Position numbers and translations under genes: made by a program. Positions 16,126-44,431 of a DNA stretch of 64,000 nucleotides are shown in pieces. The stretch's first letter is position 1. Every line of letters begins with the position of its first letter. The notes beneath the pieces are model-generated. The model was not told where the DNA came from. It was given only the letters and a program-made list of their open reading frames with translations, and ran no database searches. Origin of the DNA: an uncultured Gemmatimonadales bacterium (lineage in GTDB: Bacteria > Gemmatimonadota > Gemmatimonadetes > Longimicrobiales > RSA9); assembly GCA_963783305.1 (NCBI GenBank), contig CAWAMW010000007.1, positions 32,001 through 96,000 on the forward strand, given 5' to 3'.

Positions 16126-16946
16126 GCGGCGCCGCTCCGGTCATCCGGCCGCTCGAGACGCTCGAGGAGCGGGAGGCGTGCGTCGCGCTCCAGGAAGAGA
16201 CCTGGGGCCGCGATTTCCGCGATCGCGTCCCGGGCTCGATCCTCATGGTGGCGCAGGAGGTGGGTGGCGTGGCCAGCGGCGCGTTCCAGGGCGATGAGCT
16301 GGTGGGCTTTGTCTTCGGGCTGACCGGCGTACGGGAGGGCCGCCTCGTCCACTGGTCCGATATGCTGGCCGTCCGCCCGTCGCAGCGAGGGAAGGGGCTC
16401 GGCCTGGCGCTCAAGCTCCACCAGCGGGAGCGACTCCTGGGCGTGGGGGTGGAGACCGTGCTCTGGACCTTCGACCCGCTGGAGTCCAGGAACGCGCACC
16501 TGAACCTGCGTCGCCTCGGCGCCATCGCCCGGACCTACCACCGCGACCTCTACGGCCCGCCCGACTCCCCCCTCCATACCGGGCTCGGCACCGACCGACT
16601 CGTGGCCGAGTGGCCCATCGCATCCGAGCGCGTGCGGCGCCGGCTCGCTGGACGCCCCGCCGACCCCGTGGAAGACGCCACGCTCCTCAACCCGCCCCGC
16701 GCAGGCGGTCCGTTCCCGCGCCCCTCCGAGCGCGTGGCCGCCCCCGCCGGTCCCGCCGTGCGCGTGGCGGTCCCGCGCGACATCCAGCGCCTGAAATCCG
16801 AGGACGGCGACCTCGCGGGAGCGTGGCGGTCGAACGTGCGGGACGCCCTGGAACGGTCGTTCGTCGCCGGCTACATCGCCACGGACGTGGTGCGCAGCGG
16901 CGGGACATCCGAGTACATCCTCACGCTGGACGTGGATTCGAGCTGA
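16122..16946 (+). CDS. GNAT acyltransferase (putative D-amino acid N-succinyltransferase)
   Basis: HWSDMLAV...RGKGLGLALKLHQR, WTFDPLESRNAHLN, TDRLVAEW; overlapped with the M20 gene. Confidence 0.85.
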   Translation: MSGAAPVIRPLETLEEREACVALQEETWGRDFRDRVPGSILMVAQEVGGVASGAFQGDELVGFVFGLTGVREGRLVHWSDMLAVRPSQRGKGLGLALKLHQRERLLGVGVETVLWTFDPLESRNAHLNLRRLGAIARTYHRDLYGPPDSPLHTGLGTDRLVAEWPIASERVRRRLAGRPADPVEDATLLNPPRAGGPFPRPSERVAAPAGPAVRVAVPRDIQRLKSEDGDLAGAWRSNVRDALERSFVAGYIATDVVRSGGTSEYILTLDVDSS

Positions 16947-24385: not shown

Positions 24386-24386
24386 G

Positions 24387-25328
24387 TCAGGCCCCCAGCG
24401 CTATTCCCAGGGCGAACAGCGCGCCGAACACCACGCCCAGCAGGGCCGTGCGTCCCAGCGTAGGGTTGAGCGCCCGGCCGCGGTCGCGGTGCACGCTTCG
24501 GAGGAGTGGGAGTGCGGCCGGGAGCGTGAGGAGCGGGAGCAGCACCCAGGCGGAGAGGCGGTGGGTGAGGAAGAGGATGGGCGGGACCGCGTAGGCAGCC
24601 AGCAGAAGCAGTGCGTATTCCACCACGACCGCTCGTCGGCCGAAGCGCACGGCCAGGGTGCGCTTGCCGGCCACCTCGTCGGTCTCGATGTCCCGCACGT
24701 TGTTCACCACCAGGATCGCCGTCACGAGGGTACCGACGGGTACGGCGGCGATCCACGCCAGCACCGGGACCGCGCCCACCTGCACGAACGCGGTCCCGCA
24801 GACGGCCACCAGGCCGAAGAAGATGAACACCGCGATGTCGCCCAGACCGTTGTAGCCCAGGGGGTACGGCCCGCCCGTGTAGGCGATGGCCGCCGCGATG
24901 GAGAGGAGCCCGATGGCCACGATCACCCAGCCCGCGACCCAGACCAGGTAGACGCCCACCAGCAGCGCCAGGAGGAACGTCAGCGCCGTCGCCCGCCGGA
25001 CCGCGGCTGGAGCGAGCAGTCCCGATTGCACCACCCTCGTGGGGCCGAGTCGGTGCTCGGTGTCGGCACCCTTCTCATAGTCGAACAGGTCGTTCGACAG
25101 GTTGGCGCCCACCTGCAGGAGGAGCGCGCCAAGCAGCGCCGCGAGCGCCGGGCCCCAGCGGAACCCGCCGGCGGCGAACGCGGCGGCCGTGCCCACCACC
25201 ACGGGGGTCACCGCCGCAGGGAGCGTGGCCGGCCGAATGGCCATGACCCAGCGGCGCACGGTGCCCGGCGCGGGCGTCGCGGCGCCCGGCGCCCCGGCGA
25301 CGGAACCCGCGGTGGAACGCGCGCTCAC
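24387..25328 (-). CDS. menA: 1,4-dihydroxy-2-naphthoate polyprenyltransferase
   Basis: [59 protein letters not shown]. Confidence 0.96.
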
Positions 25329-25341
25329 GCCGCGCTCTTCG

Positions 25342-26202
25342 TCAGGGATAGCGCGGGAACTTGTTGAACTCGGGCTTCCGCTTCTCCAGGAACGCGTTCC
25401 TGCCTTCCTGTCCCTCCTCGGTGAGATAGAAGAGGAGAGTGGCGTCGCCAGCGAGCTGCTGGAGCCCGGCCTGTCCGTCCTCGTCGGCGTTCATGCCGGC
25501 CTTGATCAGGCGGATGGCCATGGGGCTGTTCTGGAGGATCTCCCGGGCCCACTGCACCGACTCCTCCTCCATCTTCGCGTAGGGGACGACGGCGTTCACG
25601 AGCCCCATTTCCAGCGCCTCGTCCGCGGTGTACTGACGGCACAGGAACCAGATCTCCCGCGCCTTCTTCTGGCCGACGATGCGCGCCATGTGCGACGACC
25701 CGTAGCCGCCATCGAAGCTCCCGACCTTCGGACCGGTCTGGCCGAAGATGGCGTTGTCGGCGGCGATGGTGAGGTCGCAGATCATGTGCAGGATGTGCCC
25801 GCCGCCCACGGCGTACCCCGCCACCATGGCGATCACCGGCTTCGGCAGCGTCCGGATCTGCCGCTGCAGGTCCAGCACGTTCAGGCGCGGGATCTTGTCC
25901 GTCCCCACGTACCCGCCCGTGCCCCGGACGCTCTGGTCGCCGCCCGAGCAGAACGCCTTCTCCCCCTGACCCGTGAGCAGCACGACGCCGATGCCACCAT
26001 CGTCCCGGGCGTCATCGAACGCCCGCTTCATCTCGTCGACGGTGAGCGGTGTGAACGCGTTCCGCTTTTCGGGGCGGTTGATGGTGATCTTGGCGATCCC
26101 CTCGTCCGCCTTCTCGTAGATGATCTCCTCGAACCCGAACTCCTCCTGGACCTTCCAGTCGGCGGGGCCCGTACGGTCGACTTCGACGGTGGTGATGCTC
26201 AT
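25342..26202 (-). CDS. menB: 1,4-dihydroxy-2-naphthoyl-CoA synthase
   Basis: [46 protein letters not shown]. Confidence 0.98.
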
Positions 26203-26966
26203 GCGCTCATGTCCTCTCGTAGCAACTCTGCGATTTCCAGTGGGTGCTCCAGCACCAGGTTGTGTCCCGCATCGGCGACGACGGTGACGGTCGCCCGCGG
26301 CAGCCGCTCCGCCATCTCCGCGGCCAGTCCGCGGAACTTGGCGTCGCGCTCGCCCACGATGATGCGGACCGGCAGGTCGATCTCGGGCAGACGCGGCCGG
26401 TAGTCCGGCATCCGGGCCAGCCCCACCGACCGCAGTGAACGGGCCAGCCCGGTCGCGTCGTGCGCGTGGCGGATCCGGCGCTGATGCGCGACGGCCTCCT
26501 CCGGGAGCCGGGCCTGGGAGGCGAAGAGCGGCAGCGACTCCCAGGCGGCGACGAAGCTATCCAGACCCTCATCGTCCAGCAACCGCGCCCACTCCTCGTC
26601 CCATTGTGCCCGGGCAGCCCGCTCCCCGGAGTCGCCGAGGCCCGGGCTCGCGCCGATGAGCGTTGCGGAGCGGAACAGATCGGGGTGCCGGATCAGGAGC
26701 CCGAGCGCCAGCCGCCCACCCATGGAGTAGCCCGCCAGGTGCGACCCCTCGAAGCCCGACTCCCGAACCCGCTCCGCGAGCCGGTCCAGCTCGGCGTTCC
26801 AGTCCGACGCCTCCGCCTTCGCCTGTCCCGCTGCCGCACCGTGGCCCAGCGCGGCCGGCGCCAGCACCGCGGGCGGCGCCCCGGCCCGGGCCAGCGCATC
26901 CACCACCGGGTCCCACGACCGGGGGGAGCCGGTGAAGCCGTGGAGCAGGACCAGCGACCGCGTCAC
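26199..26966 (-). CDS. menH: SHCHC synthase (alpha/beta hydrolase)
   Basis: [28 protein letters not shown]. Confidence 0.93.
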
Positions 26967-28768
26967 GGCCGGAGCTCGGCTTCGAGCCGACGCCGGACCT
27001 CCCGCTGGTGCTCCGTGGTCCCCCCCGCCGGGATGATGACCTCCAGCACGCCGCCCGTCTCCCGCAGCTCCTCCTGAGCGGCGGCGAGCGATCCCGCATC
27101 ATGGGCGCGGGCGAAGGGCAGCCCGAACGCGGCGGCGGCCGCGCCGAAGTCCACCCCGGGCGGCGTCAGCCACGCGGCGTGGGCATCCGGGTGGGCGGCC
27201 AGTGTATCGGCCAGCGGCAGACGCTCGAAGATGCGCCCGCCCCCGTTGTTCAGCACCACGACCGTTAGGGGGGCGGGGAGGTCGCCAGCGCTGGCGAGGC
27301 CGCCAATGTCGTGCGTGAAGCTGACGTCGCCCAGCAGCAGCGTCGTGGGCCGGCCCGTCGCTGTGGCGGCCCCCGCCGCGCCCGAGATGAGGCCATCGAT
27401 CCCGTTGGCGCCGCGCTGGAACCACACCCCGAGGCCGCGATCGCCCGCGGGCACGAACGTGTCCACTTCCCGGATCGGCAGGCTGTTGCCCAGCGCCAGC
27501 ACGGCGCCCCGGGGCAGCCCGTCCACCACCGCCCGCACCGCGGCGCCCTCGGAGAACCCATCGGCGAGGGCGTTCTCGATGATCGACCGGGCGCGGCCGC
27601 TCCGCTGACGGAGCTCGTCCTTCCACGAGGTCCGGTCGGCCGCGGCGTCGCTGCTTTCGGCCCCGATGGCCCGGCCGCCGCCCTCGAGCTCACGGACCAG
27701 CGCCCGGAGTGTTTCCTCTACCGCCCCGTGAATGACGGCCGTGGCCGTGCCCGACGGGTCCGGCCAGCCGTGCGCGGCGAGGATGTAGCGGTCGGTCCCG
27801 GTCCAGCGGTCCACCGCCGCGTGCCAGGCGGACGCGGTGGGTGGGCGCCCGACCTGGAGGACGAGATCCGGCGCCAGCGCCTCCACGAGTGCCGGCACCT
27901 CCAGCAGCGATCCGAAGGCGTCCATGAGCGCACTCGCCTCCAGGCCGCCGAACGGAAGCTGGCTGGCGGCCTCGGCGGCCACCGGGAACCCTGTCGCTCG
28001 CGCGACTTCGGCGATGGTCTCCGGCGTCACCGCCTCGGGCGGCGTGGCCGGGCCGCACACAATCAGGCCCCGGCGCGCGTCCCTGCACGCGACCGCCAGG
28101 GCGTGGACTGCGTCGGTGTCGGGTGGGGCCGCGCCGGGGCGCGCGCCGGCCGGCACTCGATCCAGGAGGCTGTCCACCGCGGCCCGCAGCGTCCGCTCCG
28201 GTTCCGTGCCCGGTTCCACGGGGTCCAGCGGTTTCCGGGCGCGGGCGTTCAGGTGCACGGGTCCTGGCACCGGCGAACGCGACGCGAGCACCGCCTGCGC
28301 GGCGATCCGCGGGATCGCCCGGAGCACGCGGGGGTCCGGGTCGGGGGTCCCCAGGTCGAAGTAGGCCCGGGCGAAGTCGCCGAACATCTTCACCTGGTCG
28401 ATGGTCTGGGGCGCGGCGGCCGCCTGGAGCTCGAGGGGCCGGTCGGCGGTGAGGACCAGGAGCGGGATCGCGCTCTCGGCGGCCTCTACCAGGGCGGGGA
28501 AATAGTTGGCGGCCGCGCTCCCGGAGGTGCACACCAGGAGGACGGGTCGGCCGGTCATGCGGGCGTGGCCCAGGGCGAAGAACGCAGCGGAACGCTCGTC
28601 GATCAGCGTCCGGCAGCGGAGCCCCGGCTCCCGAAGCGCGGCCCAGGTGAAGGGCGTGGAGCGGGAGCCCGGGCTCAGGACCACGTCGCGCAGCCCTGCC
28701 GCACGGAGGCTCCCCAGCAGGAGCCGCGCCCACTCGGTGAGGAGCGTCGCCGGGGGCGTCACTCCCAC
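26963..28768 (-). CDS. menD: SEPHCHC synthase (ThDP-dependent)
   Basis: SPGSRSTP, IDERSAAFFALG, CTSGSAAAN, TADRP, QRGANGIDG, GDVSF...NNGGGRIF. Confidence 0.97.
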   Translation of the reverse strand: MGVTPPATLLTEWARLLLGSLRAAGLRDVVLSPGSRSTPFTWAALREPGLRCRTLIDERSAAFFALGHARMTGRPVLLVCTSGSAAANYFPALVEAAESAIPLLVLTADRPLELQAAAAPQTIDQVKMFGDFARAYFDLGTPDPDPRVLRAIPRIAAQAVLASRSPVPGPVHLNARARKPLDPVEPGTEPERTLRAAVDSLLDRVPAGARPGAAPPDTDAVHALAVACRDARRGLIVCGPATPPEAVTPETIAEVARATGFPVAAEAASQLPFGGLEASALMDAFGSLLEVPALVEALAPDLVLQVGRPPTASAWHAAVDRWTGTDRYILAAHGWPDPSGTATAVIHGAVEETLRALVRELEGGGRAIGAESSDAAADRTSWKDELRQRSGRARSIIENALADGFSEGAAVRAVVDGLPRGAVLALGNSLPIREVDTFVPAGDRGLGVWFQRGANGIDGLISGAAGAATATGRPTTLLLGDVSFTHDIGGLASAGDLPAPLTVVVLNNGGGRIFERLPLADTLAAHPDAHAAWLTPPGVDFGAAAAAFGLPFARAHDAGSLAAAQEELRETGGVLEVIIPAGGTTEHQREVRRRLEAELRP

Positions 28769-28772
28769 CTCG

Positions 28773-30182
28773 TCACGCCGACTCCAGCGCGTCCATCATG
28801 GTCCGCAGCTTGACTTCGGTCTCCTCGTACTCGGCGGCGGCATCGGAGCCCGCCACGATACCGGCGCCGGCGAACAGGTGCGCCCGGCCGTCGTGGATCA
28901 GCGCGGAGCGCAGCGCGACGCCGAACTCCCCATCACCCCGGTCGTCGAACCAGCCCACGGGGGCCGCGTACCACCCCCTCGACCCCGACTCCTCCCGGTC
29001 GATCCACTCCAGCGCCTCCGACCGCGGCCAGCCGCCTACCGCGGGGGTGGGGTGCATCCGCTCCACCAGGTCCAGGACGTGGACCGCGCTCCGCAGCCGC
29101 CCCACGAACGGCGTCTGGAGGTGCAGCACGTGCCGCAGCCGCTGGACCCGCGGCTCGGCCGGATATTCCAGGAGGTCGCAGAGCGGCTCCAGAGCGTCCA
29201 CGATCGCGCGCACCACGTAGTCGTGCTCGACCTCCTCCTTCAGGCTCTTCAGGAGTCGCTCCTCCCGCTCCGGCGAGTCGGCCGAGACCGATCCTGCCAG
29301 CGCCTCCGTACGCACCTCGTCCCCGAAACGCCCCACGAGCCGCTCCGGGGTGGCTCCCAGGAAGATGTCGCCACCCATCAGGAAAGCGAAACGCGCGGCC
29401 GTGGACGACTCGAGCTTCAGCCGCCGAAGCATTCCCACCACGTCCGGATCCCGCGATACCGCCACGTCGCGGCTCCGCGCCGCGACGATCTTCTCCGCCT
29501 GCCCCGCGGCGATCCGCTCCTGGATGGACTCCACCGCCCGCGCCCACGCCTCGCGGTCCTGGGGATGCGGCCGAGCCGACGCTCCGCCGCTCCGGCTCCC
29601 CGCCGACGCCGCGTCCTCCCGCAGCTCGCGCTCGCGCGGGTCGTCGGGCGCGTTCAGCTCCCCCAGGACCTCGCGGACGTCCTCGGCGATCTCCGCCGCG
29701 CCGCGTCCGTGGAGCTCGTCGTGGGCGACCGCGATCGACACGAGGGCGCGCTCTCCATCGAGCGTGTAGAGGAGGCGGGGAAGGATGAACGTGGCGTCGC
29801 CGAACGCGCGCCAGTGGCCGGTCGGCGACCCGGGCAGGAAGGACAGCCCACCGAAGAGGCGCGGCCGCAGCTCCGGGGCGTCCGGGTGGGTGATGCGGTC
29901 AATGCGCGGCCAGAGCGATGCGGCCCCTTCGCGAATATCGCGGAACCGATCCGCGCCGGTCGCCGCGAGCGTGTGCGCGGACCCGAGCCCGGTCTGGATG
30001 GGAGCGCCCGGCGTCGTCCAGAAGACCGCCGGCTCAGCGCGCCGCACCAGCCGCTCCGGCGCGCCCGCCGGGGCAGGAACGGTGATCATCGTGATCCGGT
30101 CGCGCCCCGCGTCCGCCCCCGCCCCCTCCTCGGCGACCCGCTGGAGCGTGGCCTCGATGAACCGGGCCGCGGCCGCGGTCAT
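28773..30182 (-). CDS. menF: Isochorismate synthase
   Basis: KIVAARS, GATPERL, EALAGS, EH..VV, HLQTP, MHPTPAVGG, RGWYAAPVGW, ALRSAL, FAGAGIV. Confidence 0.93.
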   Translation of the reverse strand: MTAAAARFIEATLQRVAEEGAGADAGRDRITMITVPAPAGAPERLVRRAEPAVFWTTPGAPIQTGLGSAHTLAATGADRFRDIREGAASLWPRIDRITHPDAPELRPRLFGGLSFLPGSPTGHWRAFGDATFILPRLLYTLDGERALVSIAVAHDELHGRGAAEIAEDVREVLGELNAPDDPRERELREDAASAGSRSGGASARPHPQDREAWARAVESIQERIAAGQAEKIVAARSRDVAVSRDPDVVGMLRRLKLESSTAARFAFLMGGDIFLGATPERLVGRFGDEVRTEALAGSVSADSPEREERLLKSLKEEVEHDYVVRAIVDALEPLCDLLEYPAEPRVQRLRHVLHLQTPFVGRLRSAVHVLDLVERMHPTPAVGGWPRSEALEWIDREESGSRGWYAAPVGWFDDRGDGEFGVALRSALIHDGRAHLFAGAGIVAGSDAAAEYEETEVKLRTMMDALESA

Positions 30183-30895
30183 GGACGCGGCCGCTCGGCG
30201 ACGTAGAGGTGGCAGACGCCCAGGATCATCCGCTCGATCCGCACCATCTCGAGACCCGCCTCCTCCATGGTCCTGGCGAACTCTTCGGCGGGCGGGAAGG
30301 CCGCGATCGACTGCTGGAGGTAGCCGTACTCGCGGGCGCCGGACAGGAGCCCGCCGATCCATGGCACGAGCCGGTGGACGTGGAACCGGGCGATGCGGCT
30401 GATGAGCCCCCCCCGGGGCTCCGAGAGCTCGAGCACCGCCACACGGCCCCCCGGTCGCGTCACTCGCCGCATTTCCCGCAGCGCGCGCGGCCGGTCCGGC
30501 ACGTTCCGGATTCCGAACGCGATGGTTACGCCGTCGAAGCTGTCCTCGGGGAAGGGGAGCTTCTGGGCGTCGCCCGTGATGAGCTCCACGCGGTCGTCGA
30601 GGTGGGCCCGGGCGGTCTTCTCCCGTCCGACCGCAAGCATCCGCTCGGCGGGGTCCAGTCCAACCACGCGGACGGCTGGTCCCTGCCGGGCGATGAGGAG
30701 GGCCAGGTCGGCGGTCCCCGTAGCCAGGTCGAGCACCCGGGAGGGGCCATCCAGCGCCAGCGCGCGCACGGTGCGGCGGCGCCAGCGCTGGTCGATGCCC
30801 AGCGACAGGACGCGATTCAGCAGGTCGTATCGGTGGGCGATCCGGTCGAACATCTCGCCGGACCCCGCCCGCGGCTCCGGCCGCTCCGGCGTCAC
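30179..30895 (-). CDS. menG: Demethylmenaquinone methyltransferase
   Basis: [49 protein letters not shown]. Confidence 0.93.
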
Positions 30896-31872
30896 GATCG
30901 GGTCCCGCCGAGCACGGCCGTAGCCAGCTCGGCGAAATCGTCGAGCGGAAGCGCCTGCGAGGCGTCGCTCAATGCGCTCCCGGGGGTGGGGTGTGTCTCC
31001 ACCATGACGCCGGCGGCGCCCGCGGCGATGGCGGCGCGGCTCAGCGGCAGCAGCAGGTCGCGGCGGCCGGTAGCATGAGACGGGTCCACAATGACAGGCA
31101 GCCCGTAAACGCCCGCGAGCAGCGCTACGGCGCCCAGGTCCAGCAGGTTCCGGGTGCTGGGGTCGAAGCTGCGGATCCCGCGTTCGCAGAAGACCACGCC
31201 GCTCGCGCCATGATTCAGACAGTACTCCCCCGCCAGCAGCCACTCCTCGATCGTGGCGGCCATTCCGCGCTTGAGCAGGATCGGCCGCCCCTGCTCGGCG
31301 GCCGCCGCGAGCAGGACGGAATTGTGCATGTTCCGGGACCCGATCTGGATCATGTCGGCCTCACGCCCGAGCCGCTCCGCCTGATCGGCGCCCAGCAGTT
31401 CCGTCACCACCTTCAGCCCCGCCGCATCGGCCGCCTCGCGCATCCACGTGAGCGCGCTCGCGCCCCGCCCCTGGAACGCATATGGCGACGTGCGCGTCTT
31501 GAACGCGCCGCCCCGCAGGAACGTCACGCCCAGCTCGCCCAGCCGCGTCGCCACCGTGTGGATCTGCTCCTCGGACTCCACGCTGCACGGGCCCGCCATG
31601 AGGACCGGGGCGCCGGCGCCGTCGATGGTCACGCCCGACACGTCCACGGCCGCGCCCTGCGCGTCCACGAGCGGATGCGGCGAGGCTTCCGCGGTCACGG
31701 TCCCCACCCCGTCGATCGATCGGAGCGCCGCAATGGCCACGCGCGCCGAGCCCGGTTCCACGTAGTACTGCACCCGGCCGCCGGCCTCCAGGCGCCGGAA
31801 CCAGAGCCCCAGCCCGGCCAGCTCCCGCTGCACCGCCGCCGGCTCCGCTTCCGGTGTGAGTGTGACGATCAG
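30892..31872 (-). CDS. aroF: Type I-beta DAHP synthase with N-terminal ACT-like domain; probable CTG start
   Basis: [59 protein letters not shown]. Confidence 0.92.
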
Positions 31873-31929
31873 TTTCGGCCTCTTTCCCCTCGTGCTCGCG
31901 CCGCGGTCGCTCCGCGGGGCGCGTGGCGA

Positions 31930-31957
31930 AACGTACCATAGAGAGGGGTCGCGTCAA
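31930..31957 (-). promoter_or_regulatory. Candidate sigma70 promoter of the aroF-men operon
   Basis: Minus strand TTGACG-N16-TACGTT with an extended TGn element. Confidence 0.5.
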
Positions 31958-32051
31958 CCCCGCCGCCCGCGCCTCGCGCTGGCGCGGCGGCCCCCCTATG
32001 ATTCCTCGGGACCATCGACCATTGACGCGGGCTTTCCCGCTGGAGGCGCAT

Positions 32052-33503
32052 ATGACGTTCGTCCGAGACCTCGAGCCCCAGGCTCTCTGGAGCCACTTCG
32101 ACCGCATCCTCGAAATCCCCCGCGGCTCCAAGGAAGAGGACGCCATGCGGGCGTACGTCGTGGAAGTGGCCGATCGAAACGGGCTGGACCACCAGGTGGA
32201 CGGGGCCGGGAACGTCGTCGTGAAGAAACCCGCCGCCCCGGGGCACGAGGACGCCGCCGTCACCATCCTCCAGAGCCACTTGGACATGGTGAACGAGAAG
32301 AATGCCGACGTGGATCACGACTTCGGCTCGGATCCCATCCGGCCCGATCGCGCGGGCGAATGGCTGAAGGCGCAGGGCACCACGCTCGGCGCTGACAACG
32401 GCATCGGCGTTGCGGCCATGCTCGCCATCATGGAGGCGGACGACATCCAGCACGGCCCCCTCGAGCTCCTCTTCACCATCGACGAGGAGAGCGGGCTCAC
32501 CGGCGCGGCGCAGCTGGACGGCTCGATCCTCGACGGCCGCCAGCTCCTCAACCTCGACACCGAGGAGGAGAACGCCGTCACCGTGGGTTGCGCGGGGGGC
32601 GGGGACAGCCACCTGAAGCTCCCCGTCACCCGCACCGATCCACCCGCTGACGCGGCGGCCGTCACGCTCTCGCTCCGCGGCCTCAAGGGCGGCCACTCCG
32701 GGATCGACATCAACCTCCAGCGCGGGAACGCCGTGCGACTCCTGGCGCGGATCCTCGAAATCGCGGGCCGCGGCGCCACGCTGCACCTGGCCGCTTTCGA
32801 CGGCGGGGACAAGCACAACGCCATCCCACGCGAGTCGCGCGCTACGGTCGTCCTGCCGGCCGCGCAGGTGGAGGAGCTCCGGAAGTGCGCGCAGGACGAG
32901 TTCAGCGCCATCCGGAGCGCGTTCGGGGCCGCGGAGCCGGACATGGAGATCGTCGTGGAGGAGGCCGCCGTTCCGGACGCGGTCCTGGACGAGGCCAGTA
33001 CGTGGACCGCGCTCCATCTGCTCACCGCGCTACCGCACGGCGTGGAGTCCATGAGCTACGACATCCCGGGGCTCGTGGAGACGAGCAACAACGTGGCCCG
33101 GGCCACTCTCGGGTTCGACACGCTCGAGATCCTGACCAGCACGCGCTCCTCCGTGTCCAGCGAGCTGGAGGCGCTCCGCGGCCGCATCCGCGCCATGGCC
33201 CACCTGGCCGGCGCCGACATCGAGGAGGCCGACGCCTACCCGGGCTGGAAGCCGGATCTGGGATCCCACGTCCTCCAGGTGCTCAAGGACGCGTTCGAGG
33301 AACAGCGTGGGACGGAGCCGCACGTCGAGGCGGTCCACGCGGGACTCGAAACCGGGATCATCGGCGAGAAGGTGCCCGGGATGGACATGGTCTCCTTCGG
33401 GCCCCAGATCGAGTCGCCCCACTCGCCGGACGAGCGGGTTCACATCGATTCCGTCGGACGCTTCTACACCCTCCTGCTCGGCACCCTGGAGCGGCTGGCG
33501 TAG
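32052..33503 (+). CDS. pepD: Aminoacyl-histidine dipeptidase (M20C)
   Basis: IPRGSKEE, QSHLDMV, GTTLGADNGIG, DEESG, LNLDTEE, GGHSG, HAGLE, SFGP, HSPDE; GGAGG RBS. Confidence 0.95.
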   Translation: MTFVRDLEPQALWSHFDRILEIPRGSKEEDAMRAYVVEVADRNGLDHQVDGAGNVVVKKPAAPGHEDAAVTILQSHLDMVNEKNADVDHDFGSDPIRPDRAGEWLKAQGTTLGADNGIGVAAMLAIMEADDIQHGPLELLFTIDEESGLTGAAQLDGSILDGRQLLNLDTEEENAVTVGCAGGGDSHLKLPVTRTDPPADAAAVTLSLRGLKGGHSGIDINLQRGNAVRLLARILEIAGRGATLHLAAFDGGDKHNAIPRESRATVVLPAAQVEELRKCAQDEFSAIRSAFGAAEPDMEIVVEEAAVPDAVLDEASTWTALHLLTALPHGVESMSYDIPGLVETSNNVARATLGFDTLEILTSTRSSVSSELEALRGRIRAMAHLAGADIEEADAYPGWKPDLGSHVLQVLKDAFEEQRGTEPHVEAVHAGLETGIIGEKVPGMDMVSFGPQIESPHSPDERVHIDSVGRFYTLLLGTLERLA

Positions 33504-33625: not shown

Positions 33626-36253
33626 ATGGAACTTCGGGAAAGCGTGGTCCGGTGGGGGTGGATCCTCCCATTGGTGGCGCTCGCGCTGCTGCTCGCGGGC
33701 ACGATCTACCTGGATCGGCAGAGTCATCAGCAGCTGGAGGCGCGGCGGTCCGCCGCATCGGCGGAGGCGGAGCGGGAGGCGGCGGCACTCGCGGAGGGGA
33801 TCGCCTCGGAGGTGTCCGGACGCGTGGGCGCCCTGGCAGCCGCCAAGCTCCAGTTCACCCAGGTCGAGGACTCGCTCTCGCAGCAGACGTTCGTCGAGGC
33901 CGTGGACAGCGTCATCGGACGGCTCCCCGGCCTGATGGCGGTGTCCATCGTCTATCCCAGCGGCTGGATCGTCTCGTCCCGCATGTCCGCGCTGGACCCG
34001 CGGAGCGATCCGCTCGCGCTCCCGGACCTGAAGGCCGCGTATGCGCGGGCGGCCGCGACCCGGCAGCCCGCCGCTACACCGGTACTCCCGCTCGGCGGAT
34101 ACCGTCGCGTAGTGCTGTTCGACCCCGTTGCACCCTCCGACACCGTCCCCATCCAGGCCATGCTCATGGCCGAGATCGAGCCGCTCCCCATCCTTCGCGC
34201 CGCCCTCGAGCAGGGCGGCAAGAAGCTGAGGCCGGCCTTCTACGACCTGTTCGACCCGTCGGGCCGCCGCATTACCACCGTTCCGGCCCCGGAGGGTTGG
34301 CCGTCCGTGCGCCACGACGTGAAGGTGGCGGACACCGAATGGAGCCTGTACGTGGCGCATCAGCCGGTGAGCGAGCGCTCCTTCCTCGCCACCATCACCG
34401 CGATCCGGGTGGCGGGCGGGCTCCTGGCGGTCGCGTTCTCCCTGCTCCTGCTCCTGCTCTGGCGGATGGTGACCGCCCAGCACGGCGAGATCCGGCTCCG
34501 GCGCGTGGCGGAGACGCAGGCGCGGGAGGTGAGCGATCAGCTTCGGGCCGCACAGGAGGCGTCGCTCCGTCTGTCCGGCGCCATGGACCCGGACCGTGTC
34601 ATCGAGGAGTTCCTCGGCGCGGTGGGGGTTGAGATCGGCGCGGACGTGGGGCGGATCTACGCCTTCGAGGAGAACGGGGACGTGCTCGTGGGCCGACGGC
34701 TGATTGTGCTGGACCCGGAGCTGTGGGAGGGCGCGGGGCCCAGCGAGCACGGCTTTCGGGATGTGCGCGTCCCCCTGGGCCTGATGCCCCACCTGGCTGA
34801 GCCCGTGGCAACGGGAGAGCCCTACCTGGCGGGCCCCGAAGCCAACATTACGCCGGGGTCGGAAGGTCGACCTTCCGCCAGCTCGACCCTGGTCGTGCCC
34901 CTGGCGCTGGGCGGGAACCTGGTGGGGCTCGCGGTCTGGGAGCGGCACCGGCCGGACGGTCGCTTCGAAGACCGCGCCATTCCGTTCGCGCAGGGCGTTG
35001 CCGCGCACGCCGCCGCCGCGCTCCAGGCCGCAGAGCTCATGGATGGCGTACGGCAGGCGCGCGAGAGGGCGCACAAGGAGGCCGTTCGGCTCGCCACCGT
35101 GCTGGACCAGATGGGCGATGGCGTCATCCTCTTCGATCAGGAGGGATATCCCGAGCGCGTGAACGCCGCCGCCGAGGCACTCCTCGGCCCCGCACTCTCC
35201 GATACGCACCTCGCCGACTGGCCGGGCGTGTTTCGGATCTCGAATACCGCTTCGGCCGGGTTCCCGCCGCTGCACGCCCTCGAGGGTCGGGCGGTAGAGG
35301 ACGTCCGGCTCACCATGCGGCACCACGGGCTCGAGCGGTACCTCGCCGTTTCCGCCGCGCCGATCCGTGGAGCGGAAGACTCCGTCCGCGGTGCCGCGCT
35401 CGTGTTCCGGGACGTCACCGCCGAGCACGAGTACGCGGAGATGCTGCGGTACACCAATCAGGAGCTGCGACAGCAGGCGACGTTGCTCGAGCGCACGAAC
35501 GATGAGCTACGCGCGGCCACCGCCGCCAAGGACCAGTTTCTCGCCATGATGAGCCACGAGCTGCGCACCCCCATCAACGCCATCATCGGCTACAGCGAGC
35601 TTCTGGCACTGGGGATCCATGGTGAGCTGGGCGAGCAGCAGCAGTGGATGCTCGGACGCGTACGCGACACGTCAGGACACCTTCTCGGGCTCATCGAGGA
35701 CGTGCTCGACCTGGCCAAGATCGGCGCGGGCCGCATCGACATGGAGATCCGCGAGGTCGAGCTCGCCCCGGTGCTGGAGCGGGCCAGCGCCCAGGTGCTC
35801 CCGCTCGCCGCGGAGAAGGGGCTCAGGATCGAACGCGCCGGCGCGGCCGGGATCCGCGTCATGGCCGACGAGATGCGGCTCCTCCAGATCCTGATCAATC
35901 TCGCCTCCAACGCCGTGAAGTTCACCGAGGAGGGCGGGGTCACCGTCCGGATCCGGGAATCCGACTACCACGCGTTGATCATCGTGGAGGACACCGGCCC
36001 GGGGATTCCACCCGACCAGCTGGAGCGCGTCTTCGACGAGTTCCATCAGGTGGACTCGGGACTCGCCAGGAAGGCCGGCGGGACCGGACTCGGCCTCACC
36101 ATCTCCCGGCGTCTCGCTCGCCTCATGGGCGGCGACCTCACTGTCGAGAGCACGGTCGGTTCGGGCACCGCATTCACCGCCCACGTGCCCCTCGTCCACA
36201 GACGCCCGACGGTCGTTGATGAACCAGCGGCACGGGGCAGGGACGCGGCCTAA
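33626..36253 (+). CDS. Membrane sensor histidine kinase (extracytoplasmic sensor, GAF, PAS, HisKA, HATPase)
   Basis: Two TM helices; FLAMMSHELRTPINAI H-box; NLASNAVKFT; DTGPGI; GTGLGL. Confidence 0.93.
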   Translation: MELRESVVRWGWILPLVALALLLAGTIYLDRQSHQQLEARRSAASAEAEREAAALAEGIASEVSGRVGALAAAKLQFTQVEDSLSQQTFVEAVDSVIGRLPGLMAVSIVYPSGWIVSSRMSALDPRSDPLALPDLKAAYARAAATRQPAATPVLPLGGYRRVVLFDPVAPSDTVPIQAMLMAEIEPLPILRAALEQGGKKLRPAFYDLFDPSGRRITTVPAPEGWPSVRHDVKVADTEWSLYVAHQPVSERSFLATITAIRVAGGLLAVAFSLLLLLLWRMVTAQHGEIRLRRVAETQAREVSDQLRAAQEASLRLSGAMDPDRVIEEFLGAVGVEIGADVGRIYAFEENGDVLVGRRLIVLDPELWEGAGPSEHGFRDVRVPLGLMPHLAEPVATGEPYLAGPEANITPGSEGRPSASSTLVVPLALGGNLVGLAVWERHRPDGRFEDRAIPFAQGVAAHAAAALQAAELMDGVRQARERAHKEAVRLATVLDQMGDGVILFDQEGYPERVNAAAEALLGPALSDTHLADWPGVFRISNTASAGFPPLHALEGRAVEDVRLTMRHHGLERYLAVSAAPIRGAEDSVRGAALVFRDVTAEHEYAEMLRYTNQELRQQATLLERTNDELRAATAAKDQFLAMMSHELRTPINAIIGYSELLALGIHGELGEQQQWMLGRVRDTSGHLLGLIEDVLDLAKIGAGRIDMEIREVELAPVLERASAQVLPLAAEKGLRIERAGAAGIRVMADEMRLLQILINLASNAVKFTEEGGVTVRIRESDYHALIIVEDTGPGIPPDQLERVFDEFHQVDSGLARKAGGTGLGLTISRRLARLMGGDLTVESTVGSGTAFTAHVPLVHRRPTVVDEPAARGRDAA

Positions 36254-37431
36254 CGCCGCCGACCCCGCAGTCGCACCAGCTCGTCCACCGAGAAGACCCG
36301 TCGACGGCCGTCCTCGCTCTCGTACAGGACCCGCGTCCACCCCTGCGTCCCCACCGGGACCCACCGTCGACCGTCCGCGACCAGCGGGCGCCGCGTGACG
36401 GCGTCCCGCATCGCCTGCTCGTACAGCGAACGGGGGATCGGGCGCCACAGGTCCGGCTCCCGCCATTCGCACAGACGTCCCACGTTTTCGTACGCCGCCG
36501 GCCGGTCCTCGAGGTCCAGTAGCGATGGGTGCTTGCCGAGGATGATCCGCTCCATCAGGTCCGCCGTGTCCGGCGCCGCCACCTCCCGGATTCGCGACCA
36601 CAGCCCGGCCACGGTCACCCGCGCGATCTCCCGGAGCGACACCCGCCGCCCGTCCCGCGTCGACCAGCGGTCCTCGTGCGGCGGGGTGGCGAACGGGTTC
36701 GCCTCGAAGCTCCCCGCCTGCGCCAACCAGCCCTTTCGCGATGTGTGCGGCACCGGCGTAAGCGTGCGGAGCCGCGGAAAGCCCCGCCGCTCCACCTCCT
36801 CCAGGTCGTGCCGGTCCCACGAAGCCACCTCCTGGACCGCCGCGACGATGAGCGCCGTTGCAGCGCTCATGAGCGCCGGGTCCGGTGTGAAGTCTACCGT
36901 CACCTCCATCCGGCCCGGCCGCGGGCGGAGACCCACGCCCGTGGAACGCCTGTTCGCGGCGAAGAGCATGACCGGGAACGGGAGCATGTGGACCAGCACC
37001 CACGCCATCTCCGAGAGCCGCGCGCCGTTCCGCAGCCGCGGGAGCGAGACGTTGTAGTGCGCGCTGAAGCCCACCAGCCGCGCAGCCCGCCCGTCGCCGT
37101 CCGTCCACCGATCCAGACCCTCCCGCACCGTCGCGATTCCCTCCCAGAGGGACCGCACCACCCGCGACGGCGCCCCGCTCTCCAGCTCGATCACAGGCGT
37201 GACCAGCTCGATCACACCGGTATCGAAATACACCGCACCCGCGGTGGGCAGGTGGTAGGACGTGCCGATCCGGTGCATTGCCTCGGCACCGATGAAGGTC
37301 CGCGGGTCACCGAACGCTTCCGCCGGGTCCACCGGCTCCTCGTCCAGCAGGCAGACGAACTCCGCCTCCAGACCCACCGCCGCCCGCTCCGGCTCCTCGC
37401 TTCCGCGCCCCGCTGCCTCGTGCTTCTTCAT
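36250..37431 (-). CDS. PafA/Dop-like carboxylate-amine ligase (glutamine synthetase / gamma-glutamylcysteine ligase fold)
   Basis: VGLEAEF (GxExE), LPTAGAVYFDTGVIELVTP, GFSAHYNVS, LRPRPGRMEVT. Confidence 0.7.
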   Translation of the reverse strand: MKKHEAAGRGSEEPERAAVGLEAEFVCLLDEEPVDPAEAFGDPRTFIGAEAMHRIGTSYHLPTAGAVYFDTGVIELVTPVIELESGAPSRVVRSLWEGIATVREGLDRWTDGDGRAARLVGFSAHYNVSLPRLRNGARLSEMAWVLVHMLPFPVMLFAANRRSTGVGLRPRPGRMEVTVDFTPDPALMSAATALIVAAVQEVASWDRHDLEEVERRGFPRLRTLTPVPHTSRKGWLAQAGSFEANPFATPPHEDRWSTRDGRRVSLREIARVTVAGLWSRIREVAAPDTADLMERIILGKHPSLLDLEDRPAAYENVGRLCEWREPDLWRPIPRSLYEQAMRDAVTRRPLVADGRRWVPVGTQGWTRVLYESEDGRRRVFSVDELVRLRGRRR

Positions 37432-38033
37432 TGTGGCTCTTCCATGTGCTCCGGCCGCGGCACCAGCGTCAGATACCCCAGGTCCAGGTGGAGGTGGTCG
37501 AACGAGCGGCCCGGGACGTCACCCGTCGGCCGCACCCACACGCCGGCGACCGCGTCCCGGGCGATCCGGGCGTACCGCTCGATCCGGTCCAGGTCGTCCA
37601 TGCTGTCATCGCCGATCCGGTAGATGTCCGCGGCCGCCCCCCACAGATGCGGGGAGGTGTCCACCGACAGCGCGTGCGCCGGAGACCGGTAGCCGCCGTT
37701 CGCCGCGATCCGAACAGGGACACCCACCACGTCGCGGAAACGGTCCATGGCCGCCGCGAACGCCACCACCGCGCACGGCAGGTAACGCGGGAAGTCCGAG
37801 AGCGGTTCCGCTTCCCTCAGGTCCGTGTCCAGGAACTCGAACGCCCCGAAGTGCCGTGAGACCCGCGTCTCCAGCGCCGACTCCCACGACGGGATCTCGT
37901 AGAAGTACCGCGGCAGCTGCACCATCCGCCCCGCGGGATGCTGCGCCACCTCGCCCGGCCGAAGCGCGCTACGATACGACGGACCAAGACGGAGCCCGTC
38001 CACGATCCGGAGTCGCGGTCCCACGTCAGCCAT
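37428..38033 (-). CDS. Peptidase M15A-like Zn D-Ala-D-Ala carboxypeptidase domain protein
   Basis: SRHF..FEF, GGYRSP, SPHLWGAAADI (H...D), HLHLD; no signal peptide. Confidence 0.82.
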   Translation of the reverse strand: MADVGPRLRIVDGLRLGPSYRSALRPGEVAQHPAGRMVQLPRYFYEIPSWESALETRVSRHFGAFEFLDTDLREAEPLSDFPRYLPCAVVAFAAAMDRFRDVVGVPVRIAANGGYRSPAHALSVDTSPHLWGAAADIYRIGDDSMDDLDRIERYARIARDAVAGVWVRPTGDVPGRSFDHLHLDLGYLTLVPRPEHMEEPQ

Positions 38034-38868
38034 CCGCCGCCTCCAGCAGGTCGCTCAGCAGCATCCGCGACACGTCCGCAATCAGGCTCCGCCGCGGCCC
38101 CGCGTCTCCCTCCTCCGACCACTCCGACAGCACCACCAGCACATACGGACGCCGACCCTCCAGATACACGATGCCGGCATCGTGCGTTACGGTGGAGATC
38201 TCCCCCGTCTTGTTCGCCACCCGCGCGCCCCCCGGCGCTCCGGCCGGGATCCCGCTCACGTACTCCTGGTCGTGCAGGATCTCCAGCATCTCCCGCGACG
38301 CCGCCGCCGACACCGCTCGCTCCTCCGCCACCGACTCCAGCAGCGTCGCCAACCCGTTCGCCGTCACCCGATTGCTGATCCCCGCCGCCCACGCCCGTTC
38401 ATCCTCCACGCCCCGACGGAACTCGAATCCACCGACCCCGTGCCGCTCCAGTGTGCCCCGGATCCCTTCCGGGCCCAGCAGCTCCACCAGCACATTCGTC
38501 GCCAGGTTGCTGCTCGTCACGATCATGTGCCGCGCCAGGTCCCGCACCCGCATGGTACGACCCACATGCCGATGCACCGCCTGGTTCCCGTCCCGCGACG
38601 ACGCCACCCGGAAATACCGGCCGTCCGCCAGGCTCGTGAACTGGTTACGCACGTGCAGCCGCGAGTTCTCTCGCAGCGATTCCCGCTCGATCGCGTCGTA
38701 GAGCCCCAGCAGCACCGCCAGCTTCATCGTGCTCGCCGCGTGAAACCACCGGTCCCCGTCGATCGCTCCGGACTCCCCCGTCTCCAGGTCCCGGTACGAC
38801 ACCGCCACCGCCGTCGCCCCGGACTCCCGCGACCGCTCCCGTATCTCCCGCTCCCGTTCCTCGTTCAT
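38026..38868 (-). CDS. Class A beta-lactamase-like serine hydrolase without signal peptide
   Basis: FHAASTMK (SxxK), MIVTSSNLATN (SxN), ANKTG (KTG), HDAGIV. Confidence 0.9.
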   Translation of the reverse strand: MNEEREREIRERSRESGATAVAVSYRDLETGESGAIDGDRWFHAASTMKLAVLLGLYDAIERESLRENSRLHVRNQFTSLADGRYFRVASSRDGNQAVHRHVGRTMRVRDLARHMIVTSSNLATNVLVELLGPEGIRGTLERHGVGGFEFRRGVEDERAWAAGISNRVTANGLATLLESVAEERAVSAAASREMLEILHDQEYVSGIPAGAPGGARVANKTGEISTVTHDAGIVYLEGRRPYVLVVLSEWSEEGDAGPRRSLIADVSRMLLSDLLEAADG

Positions 38869-38959
38869 GCCGGGCGAGGCTCGCAATTCCGAGGCCCAGC
38901 AGACGACGTCCCCGATGAACCCCCCGGCCCTCGGCCCTCGCCCCTCGATTTCCCCACTC

Positions 38960-39001
38960 TTGACAGCATCTCCAGTCTTATACATCCTTCTATCCGGATA
39001 T
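38960..39001 (+). promoter_or_regulatory. sahR promoter (-35 TTGACA) and candidate SahR operator ACATCC-N8-GGATAT
   Basis: TTGACA 38960-38965; 20-bp imperfect palindrome 38982-39001 abutting the ATG. Confidence 0.65.
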
Positions 39002-39946
39002 ATGAATGAAGCCACGGTCTTCCACCGCCTCACGTCCCTCGCGGACGCCACCCGCGGCCGGCTGCTCCACGTCCTGGAGTCGCACGAGCTGACCGTGTCG
39101 GAGATCTGTGCGGTCGTGCAGATGCCACAGTCTACGGTGAGCCGCCACCTGCGGATCCTGTCGGACGAGGGGTGGGTGACGAGTCGGGCGGAGGGGACGA
39201 GCCGGTACTACCGCGGCGCGTCGCGCCTGGATCCGGGGGCGGAGCGGCTCTGGTCGGTGGTGCGGGAATCGCTGGCGGATAGCCTGGCGGCGGCGCAGGA
39301 CGCGGATCGGGCGGTGGAGGTGGTGGCGCGGCGCCGGACGCGGTCGCAGGAGTTCTTCCGGACGGCGGCGGGCCAGTGGGACAGCGTGCGGCGCGAGCTG
39401 TTCGGCGCGCACCCGGAGCACCCCGCGTTGCTGGCGCTGCTGGACCCCGAGTGGGTCGTGGGGGATCTGGGCTGCGGGACGGGACAGCTGGCGGAAATCG
39501 TGGCGCCGTACGTGGCGCGTGTGGTGGCGGTGGACGAGTCGCCGGATATGCTGGAAGCGGCGGGCCGGCGGCTGGGGGGCTCTGACGTGGAGGACCGGAT
39601 CGAGCGGCGGGAAGGCCGGCTCGAGGCGTTGCCCGTGTCGGACGGCGAGCTGGACGTCGCGCTGCTCTCGCTGGTGCTGCACTACGTGCCACACCCCGAG
39701 GCCGCGCTGTCGGAGGCGGCCCGGGCGCTGCGTCCCGGCGGTCGTCTGCTCGTGGTGGACATGGTCGCCCACGACCGTCAGGAATACGCCGAGGAGATGG
39801 GCCACCGCTGGAGCGGCTTTGCCGAGGACCAGCTCCGGCTCTGGCTGGACGAGTGCGGCTTCGACGCCGTGCGCTACCGCCACCTCCCCATGGACGAGGA
39901 AGCGAAAGGCCCCATGCTGTTCGTCGCGACCGCCAGGACCGCGTAG
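39002..39946 (+). CDS. sahR: ArsR-HTH + SAM-methyltransferase-fold regulator (SahR-like)
   Basis: LADATRGRLL...ELTVSEI...QSTVSRHLRIL; SQEFFRTAAGQWD; DLGCGTG; directly upstream of ahcY. Confidence 0.88.
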   Translation: MNEATVFHRLTSLADATRGRLLHVLESHELTVSEICAVVQMPQSTVSRHLRILSDEGWVTSRAEGTSRYYRGASRLDPGAERLWSVVRESLADSLAAAQDADRAVEVVARRRTRSQEFFRTAAGQWDSVRRELFGAHPEHPALLALLDPEWVVGDLGCGTGQLAEIVAPYVARVVAVDESPDMLEAAGRRLGGSDVEDRIERREGRLEALPVSDGELDVALLSLVLHYVPHPEAALSEAARALRPGGRLLVVDMVAHDRQEYAEEMGHRWSGFAEDQLRLWLDECGFDAVRYRHLPMDEEAKGPMLFVATARTA

Positions 39947-39995
39947 CGCCGCAGGCATGGAGCCCGACCAAGACAATGCCCGTGATCAGCGATTT

Positions 39996-41536
<1,541 letters not shown>

Positions 41537-43620: not shown

Positions 43621-43720
43621 AGGGTTCGTGCTCCCATCTGCGATGATGCGAGCCGCACCCGCCGCCCGCTGCACGGGGCTACCGTTCAGACACCGTGCCA
43701 CAGGAAGGAAACCGACGCTC

Positions 43721-44431
43721 GTGGATGCCATGATTCTCGCCGCAGGACTCGGAACCCGACTCCGACCCCTCACCCACGAGGTGCCCAAGGCCCTCGTCGA
43801 CATCGGCGGCGAGCCGGTGCTCGACAAGGTCGCACGCCGCGTCGTCGCCGCCGGCGCCGACCGGATCGTGGTGAACGTATCTCCCCACGCAGACCGGATC
43901 CGCGAGCACATCGACGCCAGCGACGGGTGGGGCGTCGAGGTTCTCGTATCCGAAGAGCCCGACGGCCCGCTCGAGACCGGCGGTGGCCTCCTCAAGGCCG
44001 CGGACTTCTTCCGCCGCGACCGCCCCATCCTCATCCACAATGCCGACATCCTCACCGACGTGGACCTCGAGGCGCTCTACGCGGCCCACGACGACGCCTC
44101 CCTCGCGACCATGGCGGTCCGCGACGCCGACAGCGACCGCTACCTCCTCTTCGATGCCGAGGGCCTGGTCGGCTACGCGTATGGCGGCGAGGAGCACCGG
44201 GCGCGGGAGCCCGTGGGCGAGGAGCACCGTCGCGACTACCTGGGCGTCCAGGTCATCTCGCCCCGACTCCTCGATCGCTTCGAGGAGGAGGGGAAGTTCT
44301 CCATCTTCACCCCCTACATGCGGCTCATCCGCGAAGGTGAGCGCGTGGCCGCCTTCGAGGCGGGCGACGTCCGCTGGTCCGATATCGGCACGCACGAACA
44401 GCTGGAGGCTGCGCGCGAGGAGTGGGGCTGA
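43721..44431 (+). CDS. Nucleotidyltransferase (MurU / NTP_transferase family)
   Basis: AMILAAGLGTRLRPLT...PKALV, LETGGGL, NADIL, WSDIGT. Confidence 0.9.
   Translation: MDAMILAAGLGTRLRPLTHEVPKALVDIGGEPVLDKVARRVVAAGADRIVVNVSPHADRIREHIDASDGWGVEVLVSEEPDGPLETGGGLLKAADFFRRDRPILIHNADILTDVDLEALYAAHDDASLATMAVRDADSDRYLLFDAEGLVGYAYGGEEHRAREPVGEEHRRDYLGVQVISPRLLDRFEEEGKFSIFTPYMRLIREGERVAAFEAGDVRWSDIGTHEQLEAAREEWG

Follow-up and report, generated by a model that had tools for sequence, protein, structure and literature searches.

Dop and PafA, enzymes with a glutamine synthetase (GS) fold that go with Pup, ARC and the proteasome, act on a gamma-glutamyl bond, which Dop cleaves or deamidates. PafA can form this bond and can also remove or transfer Pup (PMC5358908), and the small C-terminal domain of these proteins has been termed unique to pupylation enzymes (PMC8599861). 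In the carboxylate-amine ligase superfamily, strand 1 carries a GhExE motif and strand 4 an [HD]x[NH] motif; acidic residues occupy strands 2-3, and arginines are found round strand 5 (PMC2588565). In cell-wall recycling, Mpl joins a tripeptide to UDP-N-acetylmuramic acid (UDP-MurNAc), and untrimmed peptides that are mis-ligated are harmful (PMC13046382, PMC10862554). Here we describe three adjoining genes, for a serine hydrolase, an M15A-like peptidase and an orphan ligase with a predicted Dop/PafA-like fold, in a 64 000-nucleotide stretch (the window) of contig CAWAMW010000007.1 from an uncultured Gemmatimonadales bacterium (GCA_963783305.1, positions 32 001-96 000, forward strand). The genome is 96% complete, and the closest named relatives are Longimicrobiales (Gemmatimonadota). 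The trio is a genuine, conserved and uncharacterised module, which on balance probably edits peptidoglycan stem peptides in the cytoplasm for reuse by Mpl.

Three overlapping genes are conserved as a unit

Open reading frame (ORF) calling recovered the hydrolase, M15 and ligase genes in that transcription order on the minus strand (Table 1). As a first-pass annotation of the window had described, they overlap at both junctions, by 8 nt between hydrolase and M15 (ATGGCTGA) and by 4 nt between M15 and ligase (ATGA). The stop codon of the ligase overlaps that of a convergent histidine kinase gene. Extension of the hydrolase to a GTG at 39051 would cross a divergent ArsR gene, and homologues begin at the ATG (38868). 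Codon-position GC content of the trio is gene-like, with a third-position value (GC3) of 0.87-0.89. A promoter scan gave no sigma-70 site for the trio, and the single terminator-like match lies inside the ligase gene and is no more than expected by chance. Signal segments, which the same annotation had not seen in any of the three proteins, were judged by a simple hydropathy test (threshold 1.8) rather than by SignalP. The threshold was exceeded by none of 62 hydrolases, one of 74 M15 proteins (marginally) and none of 79 ligases, compared with all 10 solute-binding proteins and all five subtilases that served as controls; the three proteins are predicted to be cytoplasmic.

Conservation was assessed at the best 80 of 461 GTDB matches (the GTDB loci) and at 80 of 516 metagenome loci. 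At the GTDB loci the order hydrolase-M15-ligase, which had been expected to recur in other genomes, is kept wherever there is room for it (75/75). The M15 gene precedes the ligase gene in 78 of 78 loci with room, two other contigs ending within 72 bp, and the hydrolase gene precedes the M15 gene in 75, all five misses being truncated contigs. Metagenome loci with room contain the M15 gene in 64 of 66 cases and the hydrolase gene in 50 of 52. With the order kept in 75 of 75 loci, the grouping is not due to chance. Among 251 genomes of the phylum, ligase and M15 mark an identical set of 11 (10 of 250 without the unpublished G093). Trees of the three genes, computed on the window and 29 of 60 complete loci, have correlated distances (rho 0.53-0.83).

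The trio is inherited as one unit and occurs in several phyla of soil bacteria. Named carriers are Gemmatimonadota, Ramlibacter (3 of 201 genomes of its family) and Thermoanaerobaculia, to which the Atlas adds clusters rich in Verrucomicrobiota; one carrier, Ramlibacter paludis XY19 (L015), is in culture. For each of the three genes the Ramlibacter copies cluster with the same set of Gemmatimonadota loci, a pattern suggestive of joint transfer. In a single 733-residue protein (P0271) the M15 protein and the ligase are fused in frame, which may reflect a lost stop codon. No tailoring, export, regulator or dehydrogenase/racemase gene is conserved around the trio at the GTDB loci. A mobile or defence element was considered and rejected, as there was no match on plasmids, on viral contigs or in PADLOC. 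Neither the family nor the operon was found in the literature searched; older amidoligase surveys or supplementary alignments could still list the family.

The orphan ligase has the predicted fold of Dop and PafA

The ligase has no match in Pfam, NCBIfam, PADLOC or PDB sequences, either as a single sequence or as a profile. PF03136 (Pup_ligase) matches neither this protein, at E values up to 1, nor any of 17 diverse members, and the profile comparison with Pup_ligase and GCS2 proposed in the first-pass annotation gave no match in Pfam. Relatives number 4069 among 8000 candidates scored and 627 among 50%-identity representatives, and those bearing any name are called ‘hypothetical’.

The proposal of a PafA/Dop-like carboxylate-amine ligase fold, in contrast, agrees with structure prediction. 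An AlphaFold2 model based on 98 sequences reaches a predicted local distance difference test score (pLDDT) of 93.8, with residues 1-9 below 50, and Foldseek searches with this model place Dop and PafA on top (E 4e-9 to 2e-6), followed by YbdK-like proteins and glutamine synthetases. In VIA-align comparisons, Z is 19.2 for Dop (274 aligned residues, root-mean-square deviation 3.2), 19.0 for PafA (4bjr; 330 aligned, deviation 4.1, model residues 16-392 on chain residues 10-468) and 17.9 for GCS2/YbdK-like proteins, where the alignment ends at residue 322; the whole GS-fold superfamily spans Z 8-19. Because the PafA alignment covers model residues 16-392, the modelled ligase appears to have the small C-terminal domain of the pupylation type, in which W365 may be the equivalent of Dop W453.

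The motif pattern read from the letters was located in the translation as G20-L-E22-A-E24, Y68-F-D70...E75...TP and S-A-H125-Y-N127. E22, E24, D70, E75, H125, R169, R171 and R174 are invariant in 98 ligases, and N127 and R161 are kept in at least 90%. The metal ligands of Dop are E8, E10, Y92, E99 and H155 (PMC8599861). A profile alignment to six PafA/Dop homologues from genomes of the phylum matches these with E22, E24, Y68, E75 and H125 and sets D70 on the Dop metal-site region too; the alignment (hhalign) is local and of low confidence, with 47% probability over 22 columns, and is misaligned beyond strand 4, where assignments lean on motif order, secondary structure and PMC2588565. By its motifs and predicted fold the ligase fits the superfamily of GS-fold carboxylate-amine ligases, in which it is a new uncharacterised family with putative ATP-dependent acyl-phosphate chemistry. 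It would behave like a PafA/Dop-type enzyme, yet stands outside PF03136.

With Dop and PafA (PF03136; 7OYH, 7OY3, 4BJR, 9CKU) the ligase shares the GS-fold cradle, GxExE, YxD..E..TP, HxN and the small C-terminal domain, but identity is 10-13%. The position of Dop R90 is Ala66, and the region ahead of strand 5 is shorter than in either enzyme. The Dop-loop of 40-65 residues before strand beta2 is not present, the segment being at most as long as that of PafA L177 and forming an ordered hairpin. The [QH]x4D of strand 6 in PafA/Dop is replaced, on the presumed strand 6 of the ligase, by R174-M-E176-V-T178-V-D180, with Glu, Thr and Asp invariant in 98 sequences; this Glu is as in GS and GCS, without their Arg, and is not the His of PafA/Dop. 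Partners differ as well, in that cell-wall-type peptidases take the place of Pup, ARC and the proteasome. The GCS2/YbdK group (PF04107; 1TT4, 1R8G), to which an Atlas lead also links the ligase (0.85), resembles it in fold, size and the strand-6 Glu of the Ex[RK]x2D pattern (PMC2588565). However, the ligase has Thr178 at the [RK] position, invariant in 98 sequences, the alignment stops short of the C-terminal domain and PF04107 does not match. In one clade of the ligase family (P0123, P0125, P0126, P0128, P0271) the C-terminal domain is directly preceded by a long insertion of low complexity that contains RR-x-x-RR repeats.

The hydrolase and M15A-like partners

The serine hydrolase carries the motifs S46TMK, S119SN and K220TG, matches PF13354 (E 6.9e-48) and scores 96.5 bits against NCBIfam NF033103, below the cut-off of 200. 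Its nearest solved structures are 4hes, the penicillin-binding protein (PBP) PBP-A Tll2115 (2j7v) and 4ewf. Among 74 homologues, STIK is found in 70, SSN in 72 and K[TS]G in 74. Val154 stands at what we take to be the Glu166 position of class A numbering and aligns with the Leu at which 2j7v and 2j9o differ. Without Glu166 the protein is PBP-like and, by that test, not a beta-lactamase. The ‘signal-less beta-lactamase-fold hydrolase’ of the first-pass annotation therefore keeps its fold, its three motifs and its lack of a signal segment, but is of the PBP-like kind; true beta-lactamase identity was rejected on the missing Glu166, the missing signal segment and the score under the cut-off. PBP-A (2J7V), 4HES and 4EWF share SxxK, SxN, KTG and a hydrophobic residue at the Glu166 position. 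The trio protein differs from PBP-A and class A-like enzymes in having no signal segment, in being the constant partner of the ligase and the M15 protein, and in a family-specific RGVED omega motif (65 of 74). The same genome also encodes an exported-looking 884-residue fusion of Amidohydro_3 and PF13354 (L198:37-2688; G000 C13:102936-105587, plus strand), whose PF13354 domain is 42% identical to the trio hydrolase.

The M15 protein of this locus has R116, H129-x6-D136 and H180-L-H182. Its zinc ligands, described earlier as intact, are so in this copy but not across the family, where the second ligand is Asn rather than Asp in 63 of 67 motif-matched homologues (11 of 78 unmatched), and peptidase activity of the family as a whole is therefore uncertain. 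The protein scores 20.2 bits against PF08291, below the cut-off of 23.2, and 9 of 34 members match this family. The sole PDB match of the M15 profile is the Zn DD-carboxypeptidase 1lbu (E 2.2), and Atlas M15A clusters are assigned at 0.96-0.97. A structure model from the single sequence gave a pLDDT of 31 and was left unused. The order of GG[FY]RS, H-x6-D and HxH is that of M15A enzymes (1LBU; MepK/YcbK); in contrast to these, the trio protein is predicted to be cytoplasmic, carries a conserved N-terminal extension of ~90 residues, mostly has Asn for Asp and stays below the Pfam cut-off.

Association with mpl and other cell-wall recycling genes

Genes were called mpl-like when the best TIGR01081 E value was below 1e-75, the MurC-like background starting at 1.6e-68. 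Such a gene is present in 28 of the 251 phylum genomes, comprising all 11 with the trio and 17 of the 240 others; within one family the counts are 7/7 against 2/46. Nine of the 11 trio genomes pass the curated mpl cut-off, and the other two hold a separate, unlinked mpl-like lineage. At 29 of the 80 GTDB loci mpl is found no more than 7 kb from the trio (25 convergent, four divergent at 89-164 bp), and it is the sole outside neighbour that recurs across lineages. It is also present in all five Ramlibacter trio genomes. At 16 of 80 loci a co-oriented Opp permease gene stands upstream of the trio. Two diverged ligases that stand alone (L090 and L092) lack the peptidases, and each adjoins a gene for a Peptidase_M74 murein endopeptidase of the MepA-like kind in low-GC, island-like surroundings (L090:4674-8284, L092:6959-10368), with a CHAP protein also encoded in L092. 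As the two M74 genes are similar, this pairing may be one event.

Besides an mpl that passes the cut-off, the genome studied here encodes AnmK, Amidase_2, two S66 proteins, DapF and a DNPR-type MurE; AmpG was not found in it. A tie to a host wall without meso-diaminopimelate (mDAP) is unsupported, given DapF in 42 of 42 and the DNPR motif in the MurE of this genome. Each of the 14 trio genomes tested has kept an S66/LdcA gene. The trio thus supplements LdcA, and its candidature as an LdcA replacement was rejected on that count.

Gemmatimonadota without the trio show other arrangements. In these (L185, L186, L187, L189, L190, L194, L195), mpl is often found beside a pair of membrane genes which we take to be SpmA/SpmB-like and, at several of these loci, directly adjoins an S66/LdcA gene; such groups may be a peptide-uptake module.

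A proposed role in stem-peptide editing

Of the substrates listed in the first-pass annotation, a Pup-like tag gained nothing, while the mpl link, the Opp transporter and the M74 neighbours favour the editing of wall peptides. Peptides would enter the cell through the Opp-type transporter. The SxxK hydrolase and the M15A-like protein, the latter perhaps working more slowly or in part structurally in copies with Asn for Asp, would then cleave D-Ala-type or cross-link bonds beyond the reach of LdcA. Lastly the ligase, with ATP/Mg or with bound ADP and phosphate, might pass through an acyl phosphate and in this way form, split or exchange the gamma-D-Glu-diamino-acid amide, yielding a tripeptide usable by Mpl; this assignment of the ligase to that bond is tentative. 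In L-Ala-gamma-D-Glu-mDAP the alpha-carboxylate of Glu is free and the gamma-carboxyl is amide-linked to the diamino acid, as in Pup-Glu-gamma-Lys. Since the one bond mimics the other, foreign stems (with Lys or Orn, or amidated) could be convertible to L-Ala-gamma-D-Glu-mDAP, and it is from this likeness, together with PafA/Dop chemistry, that we infer both the trimming by the hydrolases and the action of the ligase on gamma-D-Glu. An environmental bacterium has been described that makes use of exogenous muropeptides (PMC11652737). The Mpl/LdcA/AmpD/MpaA route of Escherichia coli likewise trims stem peptides in the cytoplasm for Mpl (PMC13046382, PMC10862554) but has no GS-fold enzyme, whereas the trio here is additional to LdcA.

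A bolder form of this proposal, which we hold to be possible but doubtful, makes the ligase a third branch of the Pup-ligase/Dop group that has neither tag nor proteasome and exchanges or deamidates the third stem residue via gamma-D-glutamyl phosphate. Two dedicated cytoplasmic peptidases would prepare its substrate, and soil bacteria would turn foreign stems into mDAP-type precursors of their own; pupylation chemistry would then have an origin tied to cell-wall metabolism. If the cell-wall reading holds, an ATP-dependent editing step joins peptidoglycan recycling and foreign wall peptides become reusable. A route in which such a trio reworks stem peptides in the cytoplasm was not met in the literature searched. 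An abundant soil family with a pupylation-type domain, without Pup or proteasome, offers a handle on the origins and other uses of PafA/Dop, and all three proteins are small and soluble.

Several observations weigh against stem-peptide editing. The mpl gene is always on the opposite strand and never co-transcribed with the trio, in this genome it is unlinked (contig C15), and it is not near the trio in 51 of the 80 GTDB loci, many of which are short; of the 51 loci with at least 4.5 kb downstream, 24 contain it. A single ancestral adjacency followed by an inversion could explain both mpl arrangements, and the Fisher values for the co-occurrence are overstated because related genomes are not independent. 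The mpl-like matches of G073 and G247 fall below the curated cut-off, and in the family of Ramlibacter a high frequency of mpl would be expected in any case. Seventeen genomes have mpl without the trio, which, together with the retention of S66, makes the module accessory. The Opp link is limited to close kin (permeases 82-100% identical). On the side of the enzymes, to the frequent Asn in the M15 family are added the apparent absence from the ligase of the Dop segment that grips the terminal residue of Pup (alpha-loop/T217), so that a glutamyl donor is not assured, and the use of L-Glu by PafA/Dop, whereas stem peptides have D-Glu.

Alternative explanations

An unlikely alternative, unrelated to the wall, is that the trio makes and turns over a small peptide metabolite of the gamma-glutamyl or D-amino-acid type, or serves to detoxify an amine. 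Pup-less GS-fold ligases beside peptidases have been taken as peptide-metabolite enzymes (PMC2588565), the YbdK/GCS2 fold is almost as near (Z 17.9), and the amidohydrolase-fused paralogue in this genome implies that such hydrolases serve other contexts. However, both partners of the ligase have folds of cell-wall-peptide enzymes, as do M74 and CHAP, which replace them at the diverged loci, mpl follows the trio (11/11 versus 17/240), and the surroundings hold no conserved tailoring, export or regulator gene.

Quite unlikely, in our estimate, is a Pup-independent tagging system, in which the ligase would put an amino acid or a wall peptide on protein lysines, possibly its own Lys-Lys, and the hydrolases would process the tag or take it off. 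The closest folds, C-terminal domain included, are those of protein-modifying enzymes, the Lys-Lys in the disordered tail is conserved (85 of 97) and stands 17-24 residues ahead of GxExE in most homologues, and P0271 joins M15 and ligase in frame, although it is one sequence with perhaps a lost stop. The 1.5-kb flanks of the trio at 80 loci contain 977 short ORFs, of which none is conserved and none ends in GG[EQ]; genome-wide, no convincing acidic short ORF with this ending was seen in the top 15 of 53 candidates inspected. No 20S proteasome was found in the genome, the sole PF00227 match being an HslV-like gene beside a tyrosine recombinase, and ARC is absent among the trio neighbours, no separate search for it having been made. 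A trio protein as the tag itself was rejected, as the C-termini of all three are not conserved.

The vanHAX/vanY genes provide the model for a third alternative, by which the ligase would alter the stem or terminus of the UDP-MurNAc-peptide and the peptidases would strip D-Ala-D-Ala, protecting the cell from wall-targeting agents or lytic enzymes. The architecture of one ligase and two cytoplasmic D,D-peptidase folds is equal, and the patchy spread (11 of 251; 3 of 201 in the Ramlibacter family) with transfer as a unit between phyla would suit it. We nevertheless consider it improbable, with no regulator or dehydrogenase/racemase conserved nearby, no plasmid, viral-contig or PADLOC match, diderm hosts and a hydrolase without Glu166. 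An ordinary PafA or Dop serving a tag and proteasome encoded elsewhere, with which fold and N-terminal motifs would agree, is largely refuted and barely conceivable, since PF03136 matches neither the protein nor anything in the genome, no 20S proteasome was found there and no Pup-like GG[EQ] ORF among the top candidates inspected, and the seven of 251 phylum genomes that carry Pup ligases do not overlap with the 11 that carry the trio ligase. In the seven phylum genomes with genes of the PafA/Dop family (L170-L177), some of these genes form clusters of three to five copies with atypical ends (G186, G220).

Features of the locus and neighbouring genes

Table 1. Coordinates of the three genes and of selected protein features in the window
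Feature	Positions	Strand	Remarks
Serine hydrolase gene	38026-38868	minus	280 aa from ATG at 38868
M15A-like peptidase gene	37428-38033	minus	201 aa
Orphan ligase gene	36250-37431	minus	393 aa
M15 H129-x6-D136 zinc-ligand motif	37626-37649	minus	Asp in this copy
M15 H180-L-H182 motif	37488-37496	minus	first His is Gln in 7/78
Ligase Lys-Lys in disordered N-terminal tail	37423-37428	minus	present in 85/97
Ligase G20-L-E22-A-E24, strand-1 metal-binding signature	37360-37374	minus	invariant in 98 sequences; aligns with PafA GLETE
Ligase small C-terminal beta domain, about residues 336-392, invariant G364-W365	36256-36426	minus	PafA 4bjr alignment

Divergent from the trio (38867-41536, plus strand) lie a gene for an ArsR-type helix-turn-helix protein with an S-adenosylmethionine-dependent methyltransferase domain and then one for S-adenosylhomocysteine hydrolase, a pair presumably of the SahR-ahcY kind. 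The first of these likely starts at an ATG near 39005, with a TTGACA at about 38960. The pair is not a recurring neighbour of the trio at the GTDB loci.

Elsewhere in the window, at 43715-44431 (plus strand), is a nucleotidyltransferase gene with a paralogue on contig C2, whose best NCBIfam matches are MurU models; as a member of the trio it was rejected, being under both cut-offs and without a relative in 160 related loci. A PepD-like dipeptidase gene (31923-33503, plus strand; TIGR01893 over the cut-off) lies 2.7 kb from the ligase gene, and PepD acts late in the breakdown of stem peptides in E. coli. A protein with a YkuD L,D-transpeptidase domain is encoded at 12810-13580 (minus strand). 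Overlapping genes at 13919-16943 (plus strand) encode an enolase-family o-succinylbenzoate synthase (OSBS)/racemase (TIGR01928), an M20 peptidase and an unassigned 274-residue protein; together they resemble what we take to be an N-succinylamino-acid racemase operon for conversion of D- to L-amino acids. Judged from its translations, the region 22934-31833 (minus strand) holds a menaquinone-biosynthesis-like cluster and a gene resembling 3-deoxy-D-arabino-heptulosonate 7-phosphate (DAHP) synthase.

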